Sequence record: ON286972
Direction: 5' to 3' (one strand)
Source of the DNA: Escherichia phage A4
Length of the DNA: 64,000 nt
Shown: in pieces, positions 5,591 to 45,490 of the stretch
How positions within the stretch are numbered: the first letter of the stretch is position 1
Layout: the number at the start of each line of letters is the position of its first letter
The notes under the pieces: generated by a model
The model's input: only the letters and a program-made list of their open reading frames with translations
What the model was told of the DNA's origin: nothing
Databases searched by the model: none
Translations under genes and position numbers: made by a program

Positions 5591-6053
5591 AAAAATAAAG
5601 CAATACCCTGGATGCAAAAAGTTTTAATTAATTTGCTTGCCATCCTGGGGCGTACTATGGTACTATGATTCAGTACTGAGAAAGTGCTTTGACCTGCTAG
5701 GGTGCGGGAGTGTATCCTTTTTAAATTTTATGAATTTTGGACGGATCTTCCCACCCCCTGGGGTATCCGCTTTCTCGCGTCTATGTAGTAATTATACGCT
5801 TTTTTAGTACTGAGTCAATAGCTAAAAACAAAATAATTGAAAATAATTTAACGCGTTTAAACGGCCCGTAAAGCCCTGGATTGGTGGGAGTGGTGCAAAT
5901 GTATAGCTTAGGTGTATTAATGCGTTAGAACGCGATTGAGGCCGTTTTAATGGTATAGTACTGAATAATTGTACTCACTGGATTGATTCAGTACTGAATG
6001 ATAGTACTCCTATATAGAAAGAAAACTATTTTAAAAGTATTTGTAGAAAGTAC

Positions 6054-6081
6054 TTGCATACTATGTTTAACGGCGTATAAT
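6054..6081 (+). promoter_or_regulatory. class A early promoter
   Basis: AGTACTTGCAT -35 region and TATAAT 6076-6081, 16-bp spacer; followed by G-rich leader and ATG 6138. Confidence 0.55.
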
Positions 6082-6137
6082 GTTTTACATCGAGACGGGG
6101 GAAACGCTCCTAACTCACTTTAATAGGAATTAAAACG

Positions 6138-6500
6138 ATGGCGACTCAAATCACTAAAATCATTGCTAACCTGGTTAACTTTCGCGAAGAGATGAAAGAT
6201 CTTCCGGCTGAGACTGTAAAGATTCATATTTCAGCTTATCGGGAATTGATTGCAATGTTGCCGCTTAAGCGTGAACAATACGCCGCTACTGTGATGCTTG
6301 ATGCGATGATCCACAAGATGATTGCCAGTGATTTAACGATGGCTTATCAGTACATGGGCGAACTATTTGCGGTGTATAGTAAACCAGTGCCTGGGATGGA
6401 AAGTACCGAAGTATTGCACGGCTTAAACTTAAAACAAGATGCATGGGATAATATGCCTCGTTTCCTGGTATGGGCTGACAGTGGCAAGATTTACGAATAA
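6138..6500 (+). CDS. hypothetical protein
   Basis: 120-aa ORF downstream of promoter and purine-rich SD. Confidence 0.7.
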   Translation: MATQITKIIANLVNFREEMKDLPAETVKIHISAYRELIAMLPLKREQYAATVMLDAMIHKMIASDLTMAYQYMGELFAVYSKPVPGMESTEVLHGLNLKQDAWDNMPRFLVWADSGKIYE

Positions 6501-6514
6501 GTTTTAAAAAGTAC

Positions 6515-6573
6515 TTGCATACTAAGTTTAAAAGCGTATAATACTTTCTATCAGGTGGGGAATAGTTCCCCAC
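6515..6573 (+). promoter_or_regulatory. class A promoter plus 5'-UTR hairpin
   Basis: TTGCAT 6515-6520, TATAAT 6537-6542; hairpin GTGGGGAA-tag-TTCCCCAC 6555-6573. Confidence 0.6.
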
Positions 6574-6594
6574 TATAATTAAGAGATTAATTTT

Positions 6595-6828
6595 ATGAGT
6601 ACTATCTTAACTGTTTCTCAATCCGTTGCACTGGCTGAATTGATGGAAGCTCTGAGCCGTTGCACTGAGGTTGGCTTGTTTGATGTGGTTGACGTTGCAC
6701 CGGACGTTATTAATCATTTTTGTGATGCAATGGAAGAGTGCAAGGAAGATGATAGCCGTATGATGGCGGCCACCTTTGAGGAAGTACAGCCAGGTGAGAT
6801 CAAAGGTTTACCAGTACTGAAAAAATAG
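6595..6828 (+). CDS. hypothetical acidic protein
   Basis: 77-aa ORF after promoter, hairpin and SD (AAGAGA). Confidence 0.7.
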   Translation: MSTILTVSQSVALAELMEALSRCTEVGLFDVVDVAPDVINHFCDAMEECKEDDSRMMAATFEEVQPGEIKGLPVLKK

Positions 6829-7820: not shown

Positions 7821-8070
7821 GCAGTTTACAAATCTTTACAATTGCCAGTATTGACTTATTTTGTCAGTACTGGCATAATGTATCTATTGAAACGAACAAT
7901 TTGGCCCACGGGGTGCGGGAGTGTATCTATAGAAAAAGTAGTTTAGTACAGTTACAATTGTGCACCCTATGGGTTAGCTGTTGTCATGGGGTATATTATA
8001 CCAGTACTGGATAGTGCTGTCAATACCTTTTTTTTACTATTCAGTACTGAAAACTATTTTTAAAAAGTAC

Positions 8071-15189: not shown

Positions 15190-15372
15190 ATGTTTAAACC
15201 AATCGAACTAGCGGCATCACATATCATCGGTAAACCTGCCGTTATCATACGCCAGGAAGACGTAAACCTATGGATCATCTATCTAGACATGAAAGAGATT
15301 GAGCGTCACGATGATTTCAAATCAGCGTCAATTGCGTATGATATGGCGTTATGTGAGTATCAAAGAGATTAA
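15190..15372 (+). CDS. hypothetical protein
   Basis: 60-aa ORF; SD TAAGGAG. Confidence 0.65.
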   Translation: MFKPIELAASHIIGKPAVIIRQEDVNLWIIYLDMKEIERHDDFKSASIAYDMALCEYQRD

Positions 15373-15392
15373 AAGTATTTTGCAAAAAGTAC

Positions 15393-15420
15393 TTGCATTG
15401 TACTTAGAATCAAGTATAAT
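15393..15420 (+). promoter_or_regulatory. class A promoter
   Basis: TTGCAT 15393-15398, TATAAT 15415-15420; GGGGAAACGGTTTCCCC hairpin follows. Confidence 0.55.
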
Positions 15421-15472
15421 GTTTTACATAGCAAGGGGAAACGGTTTCCCCTGGTAACTAAGGAAACATATC

Positions 15473-15814
15473 ATGACTATTGCAATTGCTCAATCTAACT
15501 TTGAAAACGAATTCATCGCTCAGGCACTGCGTTTAAATGATGGTCGGGCCGAAATCAATTACGGTTTCAATTCAGGCGGTTGTGAAAACTATCAGTACTT
15601 TATAACTGCTGATGGCGGTGTCCTGGGTATCAATACAGTTATTGTAAACATTCAGAAAATTAATTTCAATGATCCAGACGATAGCCAGTTTTACATTGTA
15701 GGCGTTGACGTGAACTATGAGGATGACTCACTAACTGATGATTGCACTGGAGAGAAGTTAGAAAGTGCATACGGTGAAGATGATTATCAGTCCGGTCCAG
15801 AAGATTTCGAATAA
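15473..15814 (+). CDS. hypothetical acidic protein
   Basis: 113-aa ORF; SD TAAGGAAA. Confidence 0.7.
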   Translation: MTIAIAQSNFENEFIAQALRLNDGRAEINYGFNSGGCENYQYFITADGGVLGINTVIVNIQKINFNDPDDSQFYIVGVDVNYEDDSLTDDCTGEKLESAYGEDDYQSGPEDFE

Positions 15815-15827
15815 TATTAAAAAATAG

Positions 15828-15855
15828 TTTGACAATAGATTATAGTACTGTATAA
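15828..15855 (+). promoter_or_regulatory. sigma70-like promoter
   Basis: TTGACA 15828-15833, TATAAT 15850-15855; hairpin GGGAAGTACCAGTACTTCCC follows. Confidence 0.55.
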
Positions 15856-15916
15856 TAGTTTACATCAAGGCACGGGAAGTACCAGTACTTCCCTACTAAC
15901 AAAGAGAGAAAACAAA

Positions 15917-16129
15917 ATGGCTAATATCCGCACTGTACTGAAAAATGCAAAACAAGTTTTATTTTCTGATCATGAAAATTTCAACAAGGATATCACAGGC
16001 GTTCGGAATATCAAAGATGTAAAAAATGTTATGGGTATCTATTGCAATATGAAACGTGTTGGTACTTTCGGCGACAAGGTACTATACCAGGCAGGGGATT
16101 ACAATTTTACACTGACTATCATTAACTAA
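15917..16129 (+). CDS. hypothetical protein
   Basis: 70-aa ORF; SD AAGAGAGA. Confidence 0.7.
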   Translation: MANIRTVLKNAKQVLFSDHENFNKDITGVRNIKDVKNVMGIYCNMKRVGTFGDKVLYQAGDYNFTLTIIN

Positions 16130-16148
16130 AAATATTATCACAGTACTA

Positions 16149-16177
16149 TTGACAAAGATTGATAGTACTGACATAAT
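16149..16177 (+). promoter_or_regulatory. class B promoter
   Basis: CAGTACTAT-TTGACA 16149-16154, CATAAT 16172-16177. Confidence 0.6.
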
Positions 16178-16220
16178 AACTTTTATCAAGACAACGCATA
16201 TTAACTTAAGGAATACTAAA

Positions 16221-16400
16221 ATGGCTATTATCGCAAAAACTGAAATCATCGGTCTGGATTCTATCATCATGACGTTTGAAGAACAAAAAGGTATGTATGT
16301 AGTTTCCTATGGTGATTATGTTCGGGAGTATGAAACGGTAGACGAAGCCTTTGAAAGTTACATTCGCCAGGTGAATAAAGCATACGACGACTACCGCTAA
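16221..16400 (+). CDS. hypothetical small protein
   Basis: ATG 16221 after TAAGGAA SD; weak resemblance to 12634 gene (MAII...). Confidence 0.6.
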   Translation: MAIIAKTEIIGLDSIIMTFEEQKGMYVVSYGDYVREYETVDEAFESYIRQVNKAYDDYR

Positions 16401-16427
16401 AATATATTACCAGTACTATTAAAGATA

Positions 16428-16455
16428 TTGACAACGTTTGATAGTACTGTATAAT
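16428..16455 (+). promoter_or_regulatory. class B-like promoter
   Basis: TTGACA 16428-16433, 16-bp spacer, TATAAT 16450-16455. Confidence 0.5.
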
Positions 16456-16499
16456 AAGTTTTATAAACAGTAGTTAACTTAACCTAAGAGAGAAACAAA

Positions 16500-16643
16500 A
16501 TGATCGCACTGGATTCATTCATCGACGCAGTACTGGCAAAAACTGGCGAAGATCTGACCGCAGAACAATACGCAATGATCGAACAATGCCAGCAAGACGG
16601 TAAATCGGTGAAAGATACTGTTAAGATTATCCGCAAGATGTAA
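16500..16643 (+). CDS. hypothetical small protein (47 aa)
   Basis: Hand-translated MIALDSFIDAVLAKTGEDL...; SD AAGAGAGA. Confidence 0.5.
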   Translation: MIALDSFIDAVLAKTGEDLTAEQYAMIEQCQQDGKSVKDTVKIIRKM

Positions 16644-16649
16644 GATTAT

Positions 16650-16680
16650 AGCCCACTGGTTAACGCTGGTGGGCTTTTTA
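16650..16680 (+). terminator. rho-independent terminator
   Basis: Stem AGCCCAC/GTGGGCT then TTTTT. Confidence 0.65.
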
Positions 16681-16763
16681 GTATATACCTATCCGATAGT
16701 ACTACAAAATAGATTAGCTCGTTAGAATGCGATTGAGAGCGTTTAAATAAGTACTAAAAAGTA

Positions 16764-16791
16764 TTGACAGTACTGAAAGATAGTGTATAAT
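16764..16791 (+). promoter_or_regulatory. sigma70-like promoter
   Basis: TTGACA 16764-16769, TATAAT 16786-16791. Confidence 0.55.
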
Positions 16792-16840
16792 GTTTTATAT
16801 CAAGGGGAGGATAACCCTTCCCAGTACTGAGGAAAACAAA

Positions 16841-17029
16841 ATGGAACAATTATCAAGTATTTTAGTACAAGATGAATACGGCAATCCAGGAAGTGCTATC
16901 ATTGTTCGGGGTAATAAGGCAACATTTGTTATTGCTGGTGGACCTGTACAGCGTAGCATTAAAAACAATGCCGTTACTATTAATAATGTACGCTATCGTT
17001 TAGATAAAGAATTAATTCATAAACTTTAA
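16841..17029 (+). CDS. hypothetical protein
   Basis: ATG 16841 after TGAGGAAAA SD. Confidence 0.65.
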   Translation: MEQLSSILVQDEYGNPGSAIIVRGNKATFVIAGGPVQRSIKNNAVTINNVRYRLDKELIHKL

Positions 17030-17115
17030 AAAAGTACTGGACAATAGATTATAGTACTGTATAATAGTTTACATGAAGGGGAGAAATGATTCTCCCCAGT
17101 ACTGAGGAAAGAAAA

Positions 17116-17328
17116 ATGCAAGGTCAACTAATCGTTCGTAAATGGTCTGATACTAACGAAAAACCGTGGGATGTACAATACATCGCCCCCAATGGTGAAT
17201 CCAGATATCAACCTGGCGTAACGCATAGTACTGAGCAATTCGCCGCTGCTCACCGTGAACGCCTGTTACAATCCATGCAGCAAGGCTTCGGTGAAAAATT
17301 CATCCAAGATCATTGGCTGAAAGATTAA
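17116..17328 (+). CDS. hypothetical protein
   Basis: ATG 17116 after TGAGGAAAGAAAA. Confidence 0.65.
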   Translation: MQGQLIVRKWSDTNEKPWDVQYIAPNGESRYQPGVTHSTEQFAAAHRERLLQSMQQGFGEKFIQDHWLKD

Positions 17329-17336
17329 AAAAGTAT

Positions 17337-17364
17337 TTGACAAAGTATCACAGTACTGTATAAT
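17337..17364 (+). promoter_or_regulatory. sigma70-like promoter
   Basis: TTGACA 17337-17342, TATAAT 17359-17364; hairpin GGGGAGAAGTTTTCTCCCC follows. Confidence 0.55.
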
Positions 17365-17415
17365 TAATTACATCAAGGGGAGAAGTTTTCTCCCCACCAT
17401 ATAAGGGTAACAGTT

Positions 17416-17505
17416 ATGCACATGAATCCGTTCATAGTAGTAATTGCAATCATTATGGCAGTACAGGCCGTATTAGTTTACTTAAGCAAAGCAGGAGTTA
17501 TCTAA
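17416..17505 (+). CDS. 29-aa hydrophobic peptide (single predicted TM helix)
   Basis: MHMNPFIVVIAIIMAVQAVLVYLSKAGVI; SD TAAGGG upstream. Confidence 0.45.
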   Translation: MHMNPFIVVIAIIMAVQAVLVYLSKAGVI

Positions 17506-17506
17506 A

Positions 17507-17680
17507 ATGATCCATGTAGAATTGTCAGTACTGAAAGATCTGTTTTATCGGATGGGTACTACTGGCGAATATCCGAAGGGTGATACCGCAAAACTTTTTG
17601 TATCACTCGACTTATGGCAACGCGAACAATTAGTAACGTCCTGGCGTAAAGGTAAAGCCGACAAGGGGGTCGTAGCATGA
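17507..17680 (+). CDS. hypothetical small protein (57 aa)
   Basis: ATG 1 nt after upstream stop; MIHVELSVLKDLFYRMG... Confidence 0.45.
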   Translation: MIHVELSVLKDLFYRMGTTGEYPKGDTAKLFVSLDLWQREQLVTSWRKGKADKGVVA

Positions 17681-17826
17681 AAGAATACATTTTCGAAGTT
17701 ACGTTTTTGGGTAAAGGTATGCATCAACTGATACGGTCCAGCGGATACAGTGTTAACCAGGCGTGGAATAACTTAAAACAAATGTACCCGAACGCTATCA
17801 CATATCGCAACCCTCGCGAGGCATAA
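17677..17826 (+). CDS. hypothetical small protein (49 aa)
   Basis: ATGA overlap; MKEYIFEVTFLGKGMHQL... Confidence 0.45.
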   Translation: MKEYIFEVTFLGKGMHQLIRSSGYSVNQAWNNLKQMYPNAITYRNPREA

Positions 17827-17835
17827 AATAAATTG

Positions 17836-17918
17836 AAAAAAGGGATTGACTCCGGTCAGTCCCTTTGCTATTATATACGCATAGACAAAAACTAGCCCAC
17901 CGGGTGCATAAATGTATC
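17836..17918 (+). repeat. composite hairpin/promoter/conserved-box module, copy 2
   Basis: Hairpin GGGATTGACTCCGGTCAGTCCC 17842-17863 (TTGACT 17846-17851), TATTAT 17869-17874, box AGCCCACCGGGTGC. Confidence 0.55.
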
Positions 17919-17974
17919 TATTGTTTGCTGGTGGCCTGTATTGTCTAGTACTGAAAACTATTTTAAAAAAGTAC

Positions 17975-18002
17975 TTGCATTGTACTTAGAATCAAGTATA
18001 AT
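17975..18002 (+). promoter_or_regulatory. class A promoter (first of tandem pair)
   Basis: TTGCAT 17975-17980, TATAAT 17997-18002. Confidence 0.55.
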
Positions 18003-18007
18003 GTTTT

Positions 18008-18085
18008 ACATCAGGACGGGGAATGAAACAAGTAACCCCGTTAAGTAGTCCAGGAGTAAGACATACGAAAACCTCCCCTGATAAA
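18008..18085 (+). other. conserved ~80-nt structured leader / candidate small RNA (copy 2)
   Basis: Near-identical to 8107-8185, with compensatory-looking changes. Confidence 0.4.
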
Positions 18086-18090
18086 ATAGT

Positions 18091-18118
18091 TTGACAATAG
18101 AAAGTAAACGAGTATAAT
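18091..18118 (+). promoter_or_regulatory. second promoter of tandem pair
   Basis: TTGACA 18091-18096, TATAAT 18113-18118. Confidence 0.55.
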
Positions 18119-18150
18119 ACTTACATCAACCACTGATAAGGAAACATAAA

Positions 18151-18426
18151 ATGCGGATTCTACTGACAGCTAACGAAATCGAACAAGTACTGACTACTAA
18201 CCTGCAAGACTGGAAACGTGAAGCAGATATCCAGGCGGTTCAATGGCTTAACGATAAGTTAACGCCGGATGACTTAAGCAAGATTGTAGATCCTCAATTC
18301 TACGAAGATATTCACGACACCGCGTTAAGCGTCGAGGATGTACTTGATAAGCACTACATTGATACTGATTTACAGGTTTACGGTCGTAAAAACTTTATCA
18401 CTATTCACGACATTTACAATACTTAA
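18151..18426 (+). CDS. hypothetical acidic protein
   Basis: 91-aa ORF; SD TAAGGAAA. Confidence 0.7.
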   Translation: MRILLTANEIEQVLTTNLQDWKREADIQAVQWLNDKLTPDDLSKIVDPQFYEDIHDTALSVEDVLDKHYIDTDLQVYGRKNFITIHDIYNT

Positions 18427-18513
18427 GTATTGACAAAGTATCTTAGTACTGTATAATAGTTTACATCAAGGCGGGGAAATGGTTCCCCTCCTAACTAAAA
18501 GAGAGAAATTAAA

Positions 18514-18696
18514 ATGGCTAAGTGCACTATCTGTAAGAAAGAAATCGTATTAGTTCCAAGTGCCCGTGAACGTGCCGCTCGGTTCGGTGGCAAAGCGTCA
18601 GACTATACAAAAATGTTTACTGCCCATGCAGATTGCCAGGTAGCAAAACGTTCACAAGAAAGCGTAGAATTAATGCGTAAACTTTCCAAAAAATAA
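18514..18696 (+). CDS. small Cys-containing protein, possible zinc ribbon
   Basis: MAKCTICKK...HADCQ; own promoter and GGCGGGGAAATGGTTCCCC hairpin upstream. Confidence 0.65.
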   Translation: MAKCTICKKEIVLVPSARERAARFGGKASDYTKMFTAHADCQVAKRSQESVELMRKLSKK

Positions 18697-18784
18697 GTAT
18701 TGACAAAGTATCTTAGTACTGTATAATAGTTTACATCGAGTGAGGGGAAACGGTTCCCCTCCTAACAAAGAGAGAGAAATAAAA

Positions 18785-19108
18785 ATGGCTATGATCCTTA
18801 CCCAGAAAGTAGAACTGAAAATTGTAACCTCCTTTGACATTAAAGTTAATCGGTGGACTGATTCACACGGCAATACTTACCACTCTTGCTACGTGTCTGC
18901 TTTGATTGGTGATCGCTGGGAGGATTTAGGACATGAAACCTTTACTTACGGTTACGGCACACAAGGCGAATACACGGGCTTGGAGATCATTAAAGAAACG
19001 GTTATAGGTTTCAACCCGAAAGAAAAAGTTATTCATCAAATAGAAAAAGAGATCAACAAAGAAATAACAGTTCGCTACAACGATGTAAAACGTAAGAAAG
19101 ATATGTAA
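18785..19108 (+). CDS. hypothetical protein, paralog of gene at 12938
   Basis: ATG 18785; shares GNTY, YGYG and terminal DVKRKKD with 12938..13282. Confidence 0.65.
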   Translation: MAMILTQKVELKIVTSFDIKVNRWTDSHGNTYHSCYVSALIGDRWEDLGHETFTYGYGTQGEYTGLEIIKETVIGFNPKEKVIHQIEKEINKEITVRYNDVKRKKDM

Positions 19109-19130
19109 TAGAATCCATTTAAAGTACTAT

Positions 19131-19159
19131 TTGACATTGCCCAGATAGTACTTTATAAT
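19131..19159 (+). promoter_or_regulatory. class B promoter
   Basis: AGTACTAT-TTGACA 19131-19136, 17 bp, TATAAT 19154-19159; the paralogous site near 7176 has a 13-bp spacer. Confidence 0.5.
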
Positions 19160-19203
19160 AGACTCTCGCTTGTAGTACTAACTTAACTAATAGGATGTAT
19201 ACC

Positions 19204-19599
19204 ATGATTACTAAATTCTACGCTACCCGTGAAGCTGCCCGTATTGTTGCACGCGAGGAAGGAGCAGCATTTAAAGACATGGGCACGACCGCACCGAAAG
19301 GTCAACGCTGGGCCGTACAGTTCAAAGAAATCTCTGATATTGTGAATTCACCTGAGCCAGTACTGACAGCAGCAGAACAGAAGAAAGCTGATGAACTGTC
19401 AGCAGTACTTAACGCTCAAGATGAATTTATCGCTGGTTCTGATATTAAAGTACAGGTAAATTCGAATGCATGGACTCACGCGGATCACCTGGCTAACCTG
19501 AAGCGTCCAAGTGAACTGATTCGCAACAAACGAGAGATCCGTCATGACCGCAAGGGAAACCGTGTTACCGTATACAGTAAACGCCGCCAGGTTATCTAA
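19204..19599 (+). CDS. hypothetical protein, paralog of gene at 7237
   Basis: MITKFYATREAARIVAREEGAAFKDMG...HDRKGNRVTVYS. Confidence 0.65.
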   Translation: MITKFYATREAARIVAREEGAAFKDMGTTAPKGQRWAVQFKEISDIVNSPEPVLTAAEQKKADELSAVLNAQDEFIAGSDIKVQVNSNAWTHADHLANLKRPSELIRNKREIRHDRKGNRVTVYSKRRQVI

Positions 19600-19621
19600 T
19601 AACTTGCAGTACTAACAACAC

Positions 19622-19646
19622 GGCGGGATCAGTTCCCGCCTTTTTT
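19622..19646 (+). terminator. rho-independent terminator
   Basis: Stem GGCGGGA/TCCCGCC, loop TCAGT, then TTTTTT. Confidence 0.7.
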
Positions 19647-19661
19647 ATAGGATAAACTAAA

Positions 19662-19916
19662 ATGATTAAGGTACAACTATCTAAAGATAATATCTTGCGG
19701 GTACACTATAAAGCCCCACAGAGAATCATCACAAAGGCCGTACAGCTTGCTAATGAGTTTATTAATGGTAATCTATTACCGAGGAAGTTAAGCAACGGAA
19801 AACTGCGTGTAATCGACGTGGACACCAACAACAGAATAGTAATCGAGAATACCGGAAAGATAAACCTATATGAACACCAACAATATAATAAGAAAATAAA
19901 ACTAATATCACGTTGA
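19662..19916 (+). CDS. hypothetical protein
   Basis: 84-aa ORF; SD TAGGA. Confidence 0.65.
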   Translation: MIKVQLSKDNILRVHYKAPQRIITKAVQLANEFINGNLLPRKLSNGKLRVIDVDTNNRIVIENTGKINLYEHQQYNKKIKLISR

Positions 19917-19970
19917 CAGTACTCAAATGTTTTAGTACTATGTATCTATACCAACACGGGGAGTAACAAA

Positions 19971-20189
19971 ATGAATTTATCTAAAGTCGAAAAGAAAACT
20001 ATTGATGTAGCTATCCAACATGGTTACACCTTTCGTAATGATTCACATTTTACCAATTTTCAACAAGGCCAACGAACTATTAAAAAACTAATTGACAAAG
20101 GTTTATTAGTTAAAGTAGATAACGGTAACGGCGTGGAGTATCAGCCAACACAAGACGCATTATCTTTAAAGAAATATGCAATTATCTAA
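19971..20189 (+). CDS. hypothetical protein
   Basis: 72-aa ORF; TTGACAGTACT promoter element and SD GGGGAG upstream. Confidence 0.65.
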   Translation: MNLSKVEKKTIDVAIQHGYTFRNDSHFTNFQQGQRTIKKLIDKGLLVKVDNGNGVEYQPTQDALSLKKYAII

Positions 20190-20254
20190 TTGACAGTACT
20201 CAAATGTTTTAGTACTATATGTACATACCAACACGGAATAACTGGAGAAACAAA

Positions 20255-20482
20255 ATGATTAATATCTTAGAACGCATCAAAGAAACTACTACGCTGGTGG
20301 ATCTACTCAATGTACTGACTTTTAAAGTAACTCGGTTTAGTACTCCTGAATTTATCAACCTCATTGATAGTAAAGGTGAATACCGCATCACTATTGAAAA
20401 TGGTCGTGCTAATGTATTCAGTACTAAATCAGGTAAAACCGCAATTCATTCAGTAATTGCAAATAAAACTGTTGCAATCTAA
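20255..20482 (+). CDS. hypothetical protein
   Basis: ATG 20255 after TGGAGAAA SD; upstream region duplicates that of 19971. Confidence 0.6.
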   Translation: MINILERIKETTTLVDLLNVLTFKVTRFSTPEFINLIDSKGEYRITIENGRANVFSTKSGKTAIHSVIANKTVAI

Positions 20483-20551
20483 TTAGTACTAACATATAAT
20501 AGTCACATCAAGGCAGGGAATACCTCCCTGCTATCTTAAAGAGTAAATGCA

Positions 20552-21136
20552 ATGCGTAATTATACTAAATTCATCCGTACACTGGGAGAAATGGAAACTA
20601 ACAAAGAGATCCTTACAGCTTGTCGGTTGGCTGGTCTGGAGATCATCGGGGCCGGATCATCCCGTATCGTATTCGCTTTAAATGATCGGTTAGTGATTAA
20701 GGTCGCTAATTGTGACGCTGGCGTAGAACAAAATGAAACAGAATGTAAGGTATGGAATTTTTTAGATTATGACCGCCCTCACCTTAAACAGTACTTTGCA
20801 AAGGTGCATATGCATTTATGCGATCCTGATAATATGTTTATCGTTATGGATCGGTTGAGTACTGCAAGTAAAGGCAGTGTAAAGCACGTAAACGCGTGCA
20901 ATGAATTAAAGTACAATATTAAACGTAATGCCATTGAACGCCAGCACCGCTTTGCTGATGCACTACAACACGTTGATGATACATTATCAACACTAACGAT
21001 AAGAGATATCAGAAAACAGAATATCGGCCAGGATCGTAATGGCCTTATTAAAGTACTTGATTACGGTTTAACCCGCAATATCTGGAATCAGTACTATAAA
21101 AAGCGTGATGTAGAAGCAAGTAAGGTAACACGATAA
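20552..21136 (+). CDS. putative protein kinase-like protein (minimal kinase fold)
   Basis: IGAGSSRIVF (Gly loop), VIKV (Lys), DIRKQN (catalytic-loop-like), DYG (DFG-like) in kinase order. Confidence 0.45.
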   Translation: MRNYTKFIRTLGEMETNKEILTACRLAGLEIIGAGSSRIVFALNDRLVIKVANCDAGVEQNETECKVWNFLDYDRPHLKQYFAKVHMHLCDPDNMFIVMDRLSTASKGSVKHVNACNELKYNIKRNAIERQHRFADALQHVDDTLSTLTIRDIRKQNIGQDRNGLIKVLDYGLTRNIWNQYYKKRDVEASKVTR

Positions 21137-21145
21137 AAAAGATTA

Positions 21146-21231
21146 AAAAAGGGATTGACTCCGGTCAGTCCCTTTGCTATTATATATTCATTGAGAGATA
21201 ACTCACTGACCCATAGGGTGCGGAAGTGTAT
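21146..21231 (+). repeat. composite hairpin/promoter/conserved-box module, copy 3
   Basis: Hairpin GGGATTGACTCCGGTCAGTCCC 21151-21172, TATTAT, box CCCATAGGGTGCGGAAGTGTATC. Confidence 0.55.
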
Positions 21232-21359
21232 CTATTATATAAGTATTCAGTACTGAAAACTATTTGATAAAAAGTACTTGCATTGTACTTAGAATCAAGT
21301 ATAATGTTTTATATCGAGAGGGGGAAATGGTTCTCCCTGGTACATTAAGGAATAAAATC

Positions 21360-21581
21360 ATGACTACAATGACTTGCATTCACGCTTCAAACCTGCTTAA
21401 TGATGCGGCCTTTAATGTTGATTCAGAATATCAATGTTATCGGGATGAAAATAAAAAAGTTTTTGTAGTTGATAATAATGGTTTCCATATTGAATTACAA
21501 TCCGGTTTCACTGGTGTTGATGGTAAATCAGTGTGGGGCGTACAGGATGATAAAGGCACATATCATTTTAAACGTAATTAA
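21360..21581 (+). CDS. hypothetical protein
   Basis: ATG 21360 after TAAGGAATAAA; class A promoter and hairpin upstream. Confidence 0.65.
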   Translation: MTTMTCIHASNLLNDAAFNVDSEYQCYRDENKKVFVVDNNGFHIELQSGFTGVDGKSVWGVQDDKGTYHFKRN

Positions 21582-21667
21582 GTATTGACAAAGTATATCA
21601 TCAGTACTGTATAATAGTTTACATCAAGGGGAGAATAGTTCTCCCCAATACAATAAGGAATAAAATC

Positions 21668-22075
21668 ATGTCTACTACTACTAATCTCGCTCGGAACATC
21701 ACTAACGATAAAAATCATGCTGCAATGGTTGTAGCTTACATTGAAGCTATGCAATTCAGTACTGTACATAATGATAACGGCGATTACCTGGAAGATTATG
21801 AGTTATCTGATGAAGCACGTCAAGCGGCGGTGATTGCATGTTCTCGCTTCATTGAGAAACACGGTAATGATCTGGAAGTAGTTCGCGGTATGTTTATTGA
21901 TTACGGTTATGAGCAAGCTGGTCATGATCTGTTCCTTACCCGCGAAGGTCACGGAACTGGTTTTTGGGATCGTGGTTTAGGTCACTATGGCGATGTATTC
22001 ACGAAGTACTGCGAAGAAATCAACGTTTGCGATCCCTATGTAGGCGATGATAACTTAATCTATATGGGCGAATAA
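21668..22075 (+). CDS. hypothetical protein
   Basis: 135-aa ORF; promoter and GGGGAGAATAGTTCTCCCC hairpin upstream. Confidence 0.7.
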   Translation: MSTTTNLARNITNDKNHAAMVVAYIEAMQFSTVHNDNGDYLEDYELSDEARQAAVIACSRFIEKHGNDLEVVRGMFIDYGYEQAGHDLFLTREGHGTGFWDRGLGHYGDVFTKYCEEINVCDPYVGDDNLIYMGE

Positions 22076-22164
22076 AAGTATTTGACAAAGTATATCAGTA
22101 CTGTATAATAGTTTACATCAAGGGGAGAATAGTTCTCCCCACACCAATAAAAGGAAACAAAATT

Positions 22165-22437
22165 ATGTCCAGCTACTCCGCTACTATGATCATTAAAGAT
22201 ATGAACGGTAATCCTACTTCTGCTGGTGGATCATTTGGAAACATTAATTTAGATGGTCGGTTATCCATGCAATCAGCCATCGATGCAGCGAAAGAAGTTT
22301 TTAAGAATGAATGTACTGTTAGTAAGCTGGATTATATGGGATTCGCTATCGAGAAAACTAATCGTTTTGTGAACTACAAAAATCCACTGATGATTGATAC
22401 TAACCTGAAAGCTAACGAAGTGGGGTACTTATTATGA
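22165..22437 (+). CDS. hypothetical protein
   Basis: 90-aa ORF; SD AAAGGAAA. Confidence 0.7.
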   Translation: MSSYSATMIIKDMNGNPTSAGGSFGNINLDGRLSMQSAIDAAKEVFKNECTVSKLDYMGFAIEKTNRFVNYKNPLMIDTNLKANEVGYLL

Positions 22438-22625
22438 CAGTAGAAGAAGTTAAAAAAGTACTGGCAGTACTACGCTATCATAATCATTGCAAGGTGAAGA
22501 ATGATCCTGATTATGTTGATTCATCCCTGGAGGAAGACACATTAAACGCAATAAGCCATATGCAAACATTAGCAAAGCGTATGACCGAAAAGAATAGACC
22601 GGACTATATCGGAAATAAAATTTAA
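22434..22625 (+). CDS. hypothetical protein
   Basis: ATGA overlap with upstream gene; 63 aa. Confidence 0.6.
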   Translation: MTVEEVKKVLAVLRYHNHCKVKNDPDYVDSSLEEDTLNAISHMQTLAKRMTEKNRPDYIGNKI

Positions 22626-22711
22626 AAAGTACTTGCATTGTAGTTAGATTAACGTATAATGTTTTACATAGAGCGGGGGAATAGTTCTCCCGCCAGTCCA
22701 GGAGATACACC

Positions 22712-22975
22712 ATGAACACTATCGAAATCACTATCAATGCACACGTATACGACAACGTAGCACTGCAAACTACTATGACCGCTAATGATACCAGTACTTT
22801 GCGGAATACTGTTATTAGTGCCGTATGTGCTGCAATCGGTGATGTCGCCCTGGAAAATGCAAAACACGTAAACGATGGTTTCACTATGTGCAAACGTGAT
22901 AACGCAAAACATATCATCGTGGAAGGTTACGGCGGTGTAGAATTTAATGTTTATATGAAAAAAGTACTTGCATAA
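22712..22975 (+). CDS. hypothetical protein
   Basis: 87-aa ORF; promoter and GCGGGGGAATAGTTCTCCCGC hairpin upstream. Confidence 0.7.
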   Translation: MNTIEITINAHVYDNVALQTTMTANDTSTLRNTVISAVCAAIGDVALENAKHVNDGFTMCKRDNAKHIIVEGYGGVEFNVYMKKVLA

Positions 22976-23042
22976 TAACTAAAACAAAGTATAATGTTTT
23001 GCATAGGGGGAGATATCCTCCCCCACTAAAAGGAGTAATAAA

Positions 23043-23267
23043 ATGGCTAACTTTGATGAACTGATGCGGGAAGTAGCTAACCTGGCAGAAGAGAAGAAAT
23101 CATTCGATTCTATCTATAACACCGCTCACCGTGATTCAGTACTGGCATGTAACCAGGATCAAAAAGATGAACTAATCGCCACCTATCATGAAGCATGGAA
23201 GTACTACCGACAATGGGAGAAAGAAGAAAGAGAGTCTACCATTGACGGCCTCAATAATCTAATCTAA
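23043..23267 (+). CDS. hypothetical protein
   Basis: 74-aa ORF; hairpin GGGGGAGATATCCTCCCCC upstream. Confidence 0.7.
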   Translation: MANFDELMREVANLAEEKKSFDSIYNTAHRDSVLACNQDQKDELIATYHEAWKYYRQWEKEERESTIDGLNNLI

Positions 23268-23343
23268 AAGTTTTATTTCAGTACTATTGACATAGCTTGA
23301 TAGTACTGATGTAATAACTTTACTAACTACAAGGGGAAACATA

Positions 23344-23601
23344 ATGGATCAATTCACACAATATCGGGTAAATCCTCAAGCTATGGCCTACGTAGAAGAC
23401 CATAAAACGTTACCAGTACTGCAACCAGTTAAAGGCCATATCTATCGTGCAATGTCGTGGAGTGCGGCCCAGGATGGCTATAAAACCGTAGCCGTGGGTA
23501 TGTATTGCGGTAATGGTGAATGGTTTGATCCAAATAATCCGGTAGCCATTGACAGTACTGAAAAAATGAAATGGGCCGACTACATCGAAGATATTTCATA
23601 A
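23344..23601 (+). CDS. hypothetical protein
   Basis: 85-aa ORF; class B-type promoter at 23287-23315. Confidence 0.65.
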   Translation: MDQFTQYRVNPQAMAYVEDHKTLPVLQPVKGHIYRAMSWSAAQDGYKTVAVGMYCGNGEWFDPNNPVAIDSTEKMKWADYIEDIS

Positions 23602-23691
23602 AAACTATTTGACAGTACTACAAGATAATGTATAATGTTTTACATAGAGCGGGGGAATAGTTCTCCCGCCAATAGTTTGGAGTTAAACATT

Positions 23692-23892
23692 ATGTCTATC
23701 GCTATCGCCCTGGTTGAAGTACTGAAAGAAGCTAAAGCCAACCTTATCGATGTACAGATTAAGGAATTGCAAAACGGCTTAATCGGCTGTACTTGTACCG
23801 CTGGTGGAGCGGCAGACTATCGAGAACACGAATCACTCGAATCACTGGTTCGGTATCTTACCATGATCGTTGATGATTGGAGAATCATCTAA
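23692..23892 (+). CDS. hypothetical protein
   Basis: ATG 23692 after TGGAG SD. Confidence 0.6.
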   Translation: MSIAIALVEVLKEAKANLIDVQIKELQNGLIGCTCTAGGAADYREHESLESLVRYLTMIVDDWRII

Positions 23893-23904
23893 CAAAAAAG
23901 AATA

Positions 23905-23986
23905 AAAAAGGGATTGACTCCGGTCAGTCCCTTTGCTATTATATACGCATAGACAAAAACTAGCCCACAGGGTGCATAGGTGTATC
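23905..23986 (+). repeat. composite hairpin/promoter/conserved-box module, copy 4
   Basis: Hairpin GGGATTGACTCCGGTCAGTCCC 23910-23931, TATTAT, box AGCCCACAGGGTGCATAGGTGTATC. Confidence 0.55.
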
Positions 23987-24137
23987 CAAAATATATAGTT
24001 AATAACGGTGAGTAACTATCTGCTGGTGGGGTGAAAACTATTAATAAAAAAAGTATTGACAAAGTATATCAGTACTGCAATAATGTATCTCGTAGGGCGG
24101 CAATGGTGCGACGGCCCACAAAGTTAGGAGATTCAAA

Positions 24138-24470
24138 ATGACTACTTCAATCGCTATCGTTAAAGCTTTCATCCGTACTAATGTTTCCTCTGTATTCATC
24201 GACGGCCTCGACCGTAACGTAGAATACTCAATCATTATCGCACAAACGGCAAACGGTTCTCGGTACATCCTGAATGATAGTGAAGCAAATCACTACTACT
24301 TCACTAAAGCCACTGGCTTTAAACGCATCGATGCTGATGTAGTATACGCTAAGATGAATAAGCTGGTAGATAAGATTAACGCTAAAGGTACTATAGATTT
24401 ACAGTACTGGACCGAAACCGATCCAGAATATGGATCTCACCGCTACCTGAATCCAGGTGTTAAAATGTAA
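24138..24470 (+). CDS. hypothetical protein
   Basis: 110-aa ORF; SD TAGGAGA. Confidence 0.7.
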   Translation: MTTSIAIVKAFIRTNVSSVFIDGLDRNVEYSIIIAQTANGSRYILNDSEANHYYFTKATGFKRIDADVVYAKMNKLVDKINAKGTIDLQYWTETDPEYGSHRYLNPGVKM

Positions 24471-24559
24471 AAAGTACTTGCATAGTACTTAGATTCAAGT
24501 ATAATGTTTTTCATAGAGAGGGGGAAATGGTTCTCCCTCCTAAATTAAGGAGTTTTATC

Positions 24560-24961
24560 ATGACCTTCTCAATCACTTCCTTCGCTGACGTTTTAGTACT
24601 GGCTCGGACTTTTGGTAAAGATGCACTGGAGTACGCTGTAAGTAATGGCACTATCCAACCGGAACAGTGCCGCATCATTGGAAACTGCAAACGTTGGGCG
24701 GTATCCAATACTATTGCACTGGAAAACTTCAACGATGGTAACAATGAGTATTCAGTTGATGCAGTATTCGAAGCCGTTGATCTTGGCGGTATCTATAACA
24801 CTAACCTAAATGATGTGCGTATCGTTCGCACGGGGTTCGGTGCTTATGATGTATCTATCCGTGAAGCTATGAACACCGGATACATTAGTAAGGACTTACT
24901 TGCTCACATCATGCAGCTATGGACGGAACGTAACGAAGCACGCACTATCTTAGGGCTGTAA
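24560..24961 (+). CDS. hypothetical protein
   Basis: ATG 24560 after TAAGGAG. Confidence 0.65.
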   Translation: MTFSITSFADVLVLARTFGKDALEYAVSNGTIQPEQCRIIGNCKRWAVSNTIALENFNDGNNEYSVDAVFEAVDLGGIYNTNLNDVRIVRTGFGAYDVSIREAMNTGYISKDLLAHIMQLWTERNEARTILGL

Positions 24962-44928: not shown

Positions 44929-45465
44929 ATGTTAGATTATGACAGAATAGAGAAAGATGATTGGGACGGTACTCACCATTTAAAGGTTGACACTTTTGAA
45001 CACGCTCGCAGTACTGCTCAAGATCTTATGCAAATCCATGAGTTCATTTGTAATAACAGAGAGACTTCTATTTGGGTAAAATCTGACAGATTTATTGATT
45101 CAAGTTATGATTACTTCAGTATTCGTTCAAGAGGTCTGGATGATGACGGGTACAGTGTTGATATGTTCAATATCAACAAATTTAATGACCCTGAATATGA
45201 TCCAAAATACAGCGGTGGCTTTTTAAGTTATTCACCTGACTATGACAGAATAAAGTTCTTTTATGAAGAGGCAGACATTGTTATACCATTTATAGAAGAA
45301 GAACTTACCGAAGAACTGTTCTTTCAGATGAGTACTGTTGACGACCCGTACATAGTTGGTGTACAATTCATGTTCTCTTGGCTTAAACAGAATAACTTCC
45401 CTCCTTTTTATGTTGACCTTACTTTTTACGATCTAATTTGGAATTTTGTTCGTAATCCATCTTGA
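44929..45465 (+). CDS. hypothetical acidic protein, family C
   Basis: motif TEELFFQMSTVDDP. Confidence 0.65.
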   Translation: MLDYDRIEKDDWDGTHHLKVDTFEHARSTAQDLMQIHEFICNNRETSIWVKSDRFIDSSYDYFSIRSRGLDDDGYSVDMFNINKFNDPEYDPKYSGGFLSYSPDYDRIKFFYEEADIVIPFIEEELTEELFFQMSTVDDPYIVGVQFMFSWLKQNNFPPFYVDLTFYDLIWNFVRNPS

Positions 45466-45490
45466 CACCTCCTTCTGTGCATGATATAAT
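45462..45490 (+). promoter_or_regulatory. sigma70-like internal promoter
   Basis: TTGACA 45462-45467, 17 bp, TATAAT 45485-45490. Confidence 0.6.

Follow-up and report, generated by a model that had tools for sequence, protein, structure and literature searches.

A minimal kinase-fold protein of Escherichia phage A4 belongs to a large phage family separate from the T7 gp0.7 kinases

Recent work has identified phage kinases as broad anti-defence weapons, as exemplified by gp0.7 of phage T7 (T7K), a proven promiscuous Ser/Thr/Tyr kinase; the purified kinase domain covers residues 1-242 and carries DPV, the equivalent of the DFG motif, at residues 213-215 (PMC13645617). Both the T7K study (PMC13645617) and the 2025 paper on phage Sharanji describe jumbo phages, G17 and Munch, that carry distant homologues of T7K; the Sharanji paper also lists WNN14351.1 as "another protein kinase ... 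function unknown" (PMC11895373). The subject of this analysis is the orthologue of WNN14351.1 (98.5% identity) in Escherichia phage A4, encoded in a 64,000-nucleotide stretch of sequence record ON286972; this whole stretch is referred to below as the window. The protein has a kinase fold with conserved catalytic residues; its family is not that of T7K, and members of both families occur in the same phages. It is probably an active, constitutive protein kinase that is made early, modifies host targets and works as a second kinase alongside the T7K homologue.

An earlier reading of the locus, made from sequence only, had described a 194-residue open reading frame with a Gly-rich loop, a VIKV lysine, DIRKQN and DYG in canonical kinase order. 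The open-reading-frame listing and the raw sequence bear this out. The gene and its motifs are:

20552-21136, plus strand: coding sequence of the minimal protein-kinase-like protein (open-reading-frame listing and raw sequence); ATG start, 194 aa plus stop; 22.5 kDa, pI 9.2.
20645-20674, plus strand: Gly-rich loop IGAGSSRIVF, residues 32-41; family signature GxGSSRxVF, with R38 near-invariant.
20699-20701, plus strand: K50 (in VIKV), the beta3 'VAIK' lysine; invariant, 207/207 domains.
20729-20743, plus strand: Q60-N61-x-x-E64 in helix C; QN is specific to the family, and E64 is predicted to form a salt bridge with K50.
21005-21022, plus strand: DIRKQN, the catalytic-loop equivalent, residues 152-157 (D152...N157); G159 after it is invariant, and RDIKPSN of MKK4 is the aligned segment.
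21059-21067, plus strand: DYG, residues 170-172, the DFG-equivalent metal-binding motif (family conservation).
21068-21097, plus strand: LTRNIWNQYY, a short terminal helix (175-182 in the model); by conservation and model, the conserved domain closes at Y182.

Beyond Y182 the protein has a variable basic tail, and its C-terminus lies 22 residues past DYG. The ATG at 20552 is supported as the start codon because the homologues all begin with MRNY or MKHY. Codon differences in four close orthologues are 8-22 synonymous versus 1-5 non-synonymous; the gene is under purifying selection.

Kinase-profile searches and structure prediction, both proposed in the sequence-only reading, gave a sub-threshold protein-kinase match and a kinase-like fold. 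When the single sequence is compared with Pfam, Pkinase (PF00069) is matched with E=0.0018 and 18.2 bits, and PK_Tyr_Ser-Thr is also matched below its threshold. These weak Pfam and PDB sequence matches are to protein kinases only, and they are in register, with RDIRKQN on RDIKPSN and DYG on DFG; the motif set is therefore more than a chance assembly. A profile built from 11 homologues matches MKK4 (E=1.8e-4) and MKK7 (E=3e-4 to 5e-4). The match extends from the Gly-rich loop to just past DFG, with profile positions 29-182 on kinase residues 21-171.

The AlphaFold2 model used here, built with 35 homologues, is compact and confident (pLDDT 94.1, pTM 0.90); with an 11-sequence alignment, pLDDT was 48 beyond residue 64. 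Two N-terminal helices are followed by beta1-beta3 (30-52), helix C (55-73), beta5 (96-100), helix D (109-120), helix E (130-145), the catalytic loop, two short strands, DYG and a last helix (175-182). The model contains the elements of the protein-kinase-like (PKL) fold: its core is bilobal and ATP-grasp-like, helix C accompanies an N-lobe of five strands, there is a hinge, and the catalytic and metal-binding loops sit on a beta-hairpin. The four PKL catalytic residues, namely the beta3 Lys, the helix-C Glu, the catalytic-loop Asp and the DFG Asp, are present. Foldseek matches are the Legionella Lpg2603 kinase, MEK1, APH(2''), NEK7 and Rio2 (E 1e-4 to 1e-3), and only kinase-like folds are found among the matches listed; TM-scores against solved kinases are modest (0.36-0.46). 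Subdomains VIII-XI, comprising the activation segment with its APE motif and helices F-I, are absent, and a single helix follows DYG in the model.

A word-indexed search recovered 38 homologues, whereas an exhaustive hidden Markov model (HMM) search recovered 2,088 cluster representatives at E<=1e-3, 254 of them at E<=1e-10. Conservation was measured on 207 full-length domains from 182 fetched proteins, aligned to the family HMM. The members are very divergent, with a mean column identity of 13% in the alignment behind the family profile used for profile-profile comparison. K50 is conserved in 100% of domains, D170 in 99.5%, G172 in 99% and E64 in 98.6%; R38, Q60 and G159 are each conserved in 98%, N61 in 97%, G35 in 95% and S36 in 90%. 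The catalytic Asp is found 7 or 8 positions before G159 in 197/207 domains (95%). Position 171 is Y in 71% and F in 17%, so that D[YF]G is present in 88% of the domains. Y182 is kept in 154/207, and position 174 is S or T in 63%. The family signature is GxGSSRxVF ... V[IL]KxA ... GxxQNxxE ... D-x5-6-[NHSQ]-x-G ... D[YF]G[LF][TS]xxVxxx[YH]Y. With a kinase fold matched and the catalytic residues 95-100% conserved, the kinase-like part of the earlier reading stands.

Relative to the HRD-x-K-x-x-N loop, IRDIRKQN keeps D and N; homologues conserve neither H nor R, and because D alone of "HRD" is conserved, the family is of the non-RD type. The position of N157 is variable (N 38%, H 30%, S 15%, Q 11%).

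The sequence-only reading had also suggested that the protein may be truncated, as it ends soon after DYG. This is not the case. Among 119 single-domain members, the tail after DxG has a median length of 23 residues and a 95th percentile of 42; in 75% of members it carries a net positive charge. A single domain is present in 153 of the 182 fetched proteins, and another 22 have 2-4 complete copies in tandem. The shared module is ~180 aa long and ends ~12 residues after D[YF]G, without activation segment or C-lobe helices. Given these short tails and complete tandem copies, the short length is the native form of an autonomous domain.

In several relatives the module occurs more than once, within one protein or in nearby genes. 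P0044, P0045, P0051, P0052, P0055 and P0058, metagenomic proteins of 600-970 aa, each contain 3-4 complete tandem ~180-aa modules, and every module keeps the K/E/D/D residues. P0035 comes from a T4-like contig of 189 kb; its gene lies just 3' of the one for the major capsid protein (Gp23), and a paralogue is encoded 4 kb further on, near gp13 (L006:6001-6684 and L006:10384-10896); P0038 adjoins a tandem paralogue in a 38-kb contig (L007:5326-5979 and 6001-6615). In P0157 (3,248 aa), two modules are joined to a PhageMin_Tail (tape-measure-type minor-tail) domain. The polyvalent-like P0133 (2,130 aa) combines three modules with a weak GNAT match, a 2'-5' RNA ligase/2H-phosphoesterase and a poly(A) polymerase/CCA-adding domain. 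Paralogue expansion and fusion to proteins that are likely to be injected form the pattern expected of host-directed effector modules, and the modules may act as such. Every family locus checked has a phage-type context, and the sampled members are restricted to phages.

In the 2 kb around the gene, A4 is 88-96% identical to the ~350-kb Asteriusvirus jumbo coliphages (121Q, PBECO4, G17, Sharanji, phAPEC6). By tblastn the protein is present in 53 phage records. Orthologues in Escherichia and Salmonella phages are mostly 91-98% identical, with CMSTMSU at 77%; those in RaK2-like phages of Klebsiella (RaK2, K64-1, Muenster), Salmonella (Munch, 7t3), Erwinia and Xanthomonas are 36-42% identical. 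Distant copies, all annotated as hypothetical, occur in the cultured phages XacN1 and Xoo-sp13 of Xanthomonas, in Alishewanella phages and in Rhodothermus phage RM378. Most orthologues are also annotated as hypothetical; K64-1, Munch, Muenster, ph0011, fEgEco12, Turkey3 and Turkey5 label theirs as a (putative) protein kinase. Since these GenBank records and the Sharanji paper already make the kinase call, it is public and novelty at the level of the gene is low. No description of the family as such was found in literature searches. The sole PHROG matched is phrog_4301, "unknown function" (E=1.1e-41, residues 7-187 on profile positions 17-184 of 225). Pfam has no model for the family: among 98 diverse members, four weakly match Pkinase (E<=0.01) and two ABC1. 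NCBIfam gave nothing specific (PknB_PASTA, E=0.051), and PADLOC gave weak generic matches to PD-T4-6 kinase models, none of them specific.

T7K offers an architectural and functional parallel. The T7K homologue of Sharanji is gp144 (WNN14432.1; 224 aa; L004:4183-4857, minus strand), which contains DIHSSN ... ITDPL, lacks the shutoff domain and ends 18 aa past DPL. It matches the T7K PHROG, phrog_15752, at 1e-97, and tblastn with gp144 recovers ~680 Autographiviridae kinases, including that of T3, together with a Munch protein at 326 kb; the homologues published for G17 and Munch are taken to be of the gp144 type on account of the DPx motif and these tblastn matches. The A4 protein resembles T7K and gp144 in being phage-encoded, in its putative early location and in having N-terminal helices, a Gly-rich loop, a Lys, a D-x4-N loop and a DFG equivalent. 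In all three the domain ends 18-27 residues after the DFG equivalent, without a regulatory activation loop. Unlike T7K, it has DYG rather than DPV, is a 194-aa protein without shutoff or DNA-binding domain and belongs to another PHROG; the GxGSSR and QNxxE motifs of its family are absent from T7K.

Sequence comparison separates the two groups. Comparison by hhalign with T7 gp0.7, gp144 and a T7K-family profile gave local matches only (E 0.004-0.017, probability 3-8%); in the last of these, family profile against family profile, the probability was 8% and the match was confined to the N-lobe. Searches by tblastn with the 194-aa protein returned no Autographiviridae record. The window contains neither a T7K-type gene nor a second member of the minimal-kinase family. 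Matches in the structure database BFVD include T7-type kinases (TMq 0.51-0.57), which rank above solved cellular kinases. The minimal-kinase family and T7K are separate families that reside in the same phages. The parallel with T7 gp0.7 drawn in the sequence-only reading therefore holds for architecture and function by analogy; it does not hold for ancestry, as no relationship is detectable and the lineage has a separate, true T7K homologue. T7K nevertheless provides an experimental precedent for a potent protein kinase, because its core also ends shortly after the DFG equivalent.

Other kinase families were compared as well. The protein shares with eukaryotic-type kinases (PF00069/PF07714; best matches MKK4 and MKK7) the collinear order of motifs from Gly-rich loop to DFG and the four catalytic residues; unlike them, it scores below the Pfam threshold and has no activation segment, APE motif or helices F-I. 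The RIO and Kdo kinase models, named in the sequence-only reading as ones to search, did not match in a Pfam scan of the protein, nor did the APH and choline-kinase models. Aminoglycoside 2''-phosphotransferases, APH(2''), differ further in having a large helical substrate-binding C-lobe and ~300 aa in total; the APH motif is HxDxxxxN, and its His is absent from the A4 protein. Bud32, Rio1/Rio2 and the archaeal Ark1/TkArkI RNA kinases are very small PKL enzymes with scores lower than those of APH and protein kinases; their roles are in cellular housekeeping, and they do not come from phages. The enterobacterial PKL protein YrbL (PF10707; 210 aa) is of comparable length, and its Gly-rich loop reads GxGxxR. 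Against PF10707, whose cut-off is 31.5 bits, the distant family member P0053 narrowly misses with 29.4. Membership of the YrbL family was rejected, as the A4 protein does not match PF10707 and the family profile aligns to E. coli YrbL with E=0.27 by hhalign. HopBF1, a minimal atypical kinase and type III effector of Pseudomonas syringae on eukaryotic hosts, is not among the top 50-60 structural matches listed, and no sequence relationship to the A4 protein was detected.

From these features we infer enzymatic activity, protein as the substrate, the timing of expression and the biological role. Of the PKL fold, the protein keeps the core that would bind ATP and transfer phosphate: an N-terminal helical hairpin, the N-lobe with Gly-rich loop, K50 and helix-C E64, then the hinge, followed by helices D and E, the catalytic loop with D152, DYG and a closing helix. 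Mg-ATP would be bound between the GxGSSR loop, the K50-E64 pair and D170, and D152 would serve as the catalytic base. The enzyme is likely to be constitutively active, since it has no activation loop and no RD arginine. Produced early from its own promoter by the host RNA polymerase, it would phosphorylate host proteins on Ser/Thr (and possibly Tyr) and so assist takeover or counter-defence alongside the T7K homologue. A speculative role for the basic tail is to favour targets associated with nucleic acids, in the manner of the DNA-binding domain of T7K.

Some observations weigh against a protein kinase. The sequence matches to protein kinases all fall below curated thresholds (18.2 versus 31.7 bits for Pkinase), and the canonical peptide-binding platform (activation segment, P+1 loop, helix G) is absent. 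The Lys at D+2, typical of Ser/Thr kinases, is not conserved, and most distant members have H, S or Q instead of the catalytic-loop Asn, which is a metal ligand in canonical kinases. The RNA-repair enzymes that form one set of fusion partners, in P0133, also fit a nucleic-acid substrate. An active PKL phosphotransferase acting on something other than protein, such as a small molecule, a nucleotide or signalling molecule, a lipid, a sugar or RNA (cf. APH, Ark1), would account for the missing activation segment and peptide-binding lobe, for the variation at D+2 and N157, for the joining of three modules to RNA-repair enzymes and for the basic C-terminal tails. It is nonetheless rather unlikely: the best sequence matches are all bona fide protein kinases (MKK4/7, PKC, BTK), the Pfam APH, choline-kinase, RIO and Kdo models are unmatched, and T7K, with a similarly truncated architecture, phosphorylates proteins. 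Polyvalent proteins typically combine functionally unrelated effector domains, which lessens the weight of P0133. A pseudokinase, a nucleotide-binding scaffold or an enzyme of other chemistry, modulating a host or phage partner without phosphotransfer, is less probable again. SelO, for example, has a kinase fold and carries out AMPylation. The absent C-lobe and the unconserved N157 are compatible with such a protein, and the invariant R38, Q60 and N61, which have no counterpart in canonical kinases, could reposition the nucleotide; conservation of K50, E64, D152 and D170-x-G172 at 95-100% among very divergent members is, however, unusual for pseudokinases.

Two readings of origin are further from the evidence. 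Membership of the T7 gp0.7 family, as an orthologue or a divergent member, would explain the shared architecture, the local motif similarity (AGL..G.G...VIKV; DIHxxN...D), the T7-type kinases among the BFVD matches and the T7K homologues published for G17 and Munch. It is very improbable given phrog_4301 versus phrog_15752/2828, DYG instead of DPV or DPL, and zero Autographiviridae by tblastn against ~680 for gp144; the true T7K homologue of the lineage is a different gene, outside the window. Membership was rejected because the profile-profile matches are local and insignificant. That the gene is what remains of a longer kinase gene after truncation or decay is scarcely credible. The protein does stop 22 residues after DYG, and canonical kinase domains run ~100 residues further; however, the length distribution of the family refutes this reading, as 38/38 close homologues are 191-227 aa long and the short tails and intact tandem repeats recur across the family. 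Purifying selection and the compact model (pLDDT 94) also speak against decay, a hairpin lies 3' of the stop, and no in-frame continuation is seen.

The proposed early protein kinase is preceded by its own promoter-like site. The flanking elements are:

20472-20500, plus strand: sigma-70-type promoter-like site TTGCAA-17-TATAAT (promoter scan); the spacer contains AGTACT, and the site is one of the variants of the repeated cassette.
20513-20531, plus strand: stem-loop GCAGGGA-ATACC-TCCCTGC in the 5' untranslated region, 7-bp stem (read from sequence); the usual cassette hairpin between promoter and ribosome-binding site.
20538-20543, plus strand: Shine-Dalgarno-like AAAGAG, 8 nt 5' of the ATG (read from sequence).
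21148-21175, plus strand: hairpin with a 12-bp stem, 12 nt past the stop codon; overlaps the -35 of a TTGACT-17-TATTAT site at 21155-21183.
15817-15870, 17325-17378, 18418-18471, 18688-18741, 22070-22123, 21268-21364 and 24468-24564: examples of cassette copies (repeat search).

The hairpin at 21148-21175 probably marks the end of the transcription unit. All sizeable open reading frames of the window are on the plus strand. Perfect TTGACA-N16-18-TATAAT sites number 12 in the window versus 0.16 expected, and 10 of these are on the plus strand at 15.8-23.6 kb. The early-promoter cassette is present in more than 20 copies in 15300-24600, where nearly every small plus-strand gene has one. It consists of an A-rich UP-like tract, TTGACA (or TTGCAT), an AGTACTG-containing spacer, TATAAT, 'AGTTTACATCAAGG', a GC-rich 5' hairpin, a Shine-Dalgarno sequence and ATG. 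In vB_Ec-M-J, the orthologue is located inside an annotated 21.5-kb direct terminal repeat. RpoD-like promoter clusters before short open reading frames, some of them in the terminal repeat, were interpreted as an early host-takeover region in the RaK2-like phage CBB (PMC5259590). On the grounds of the promoter cassette, the terminal-repeat location and the CBB parallel, it is reasonable to infer early expression by the host RNA polymerase. The phAPEC6 orthologue, gp500c, was not found in the accessible part of the 62-protein virion mass-spectrometry table for that phage.

The surroundings of the gene differ between phages. The upstream region 20440-20551 is mosaic with respect to fEgEco12, Sharanji and vB_Ec-M-J, which have a different upstream open reading frame; the coding sequence and downstream region are collinear. 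The hairpin at 20513-20531 is absent 5' of the orthologues in these three phages. Four phages hardly differ in the ~146 nt that follow the kinase stop codon, while their coding sequences differ by ~4%. An 83-nt element is present in three copies (17836-17918, 21145-21227 and 23904-23986); it opens with a perfect 12-bp-stem hairpin (AAAGGGATTGACTCCGGTCAGTCCCTTT), identical at 17839, 21148 and 23907, which contains the -35 TTGACT and is followed by TATTAT. Its RNA fold has z=-3.5, and an Rfam scan of 15-26 kb gave no match; the element could be a terminator-promoter module or a small RNA. A 79-nt direct repeat (19881-19959 and 20158-20236, 76% identical) contains TTGACAGTACTC...TACTAT promoter-like sites, and its copies precede the two small genes directly upstream of the kinase gene, at 19971-20189 and 20219-20482. 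Outside the main cluster, perfect sigma-70 consensus promoters are located at 7995-8023 (minus strand) and 45462-45490 (plus strand); almost all coding capacity is on the plus strand.

What is new here is the placing of the gene in a large phage family, so far uncurated, whose members are autonomous kinase-fold modules of ~180 aa; this family is separate from T7K and occurs in the same phages. It is possible, and suggested here tentatively, that the GxGSSR/QNxxE/D[YF]G module is an undescribed and very widespread class of minimal kinase (>2,000 clusters), among the smallest autonomous kinase-fold units. Phages may deploy it modularly, as a single early gene, as paralogues, in tandem arrays and in fusions to tail or polyvalent injected proteins; it could form an arm of takeover or anti-defence independent of T7K, or its target could be RNA or an immune signalling nucleotide. 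Since the E. coli phages G17, Sharanji and phAPEC6, which bear the gene, are in culture, the kinase hypothesis is directly testable.

The T7K lineage is the only phage-kinase lineage studied so far. Jumbo phages of the RaK2/Asteriusvirus type carry a second, unrelated kinase-fold enzyme besides their T7K homologue. If active, the family would widen the phosphorylation repertoire of phages; structural studies and engineering would also gain a kinase scaffold of very small size.

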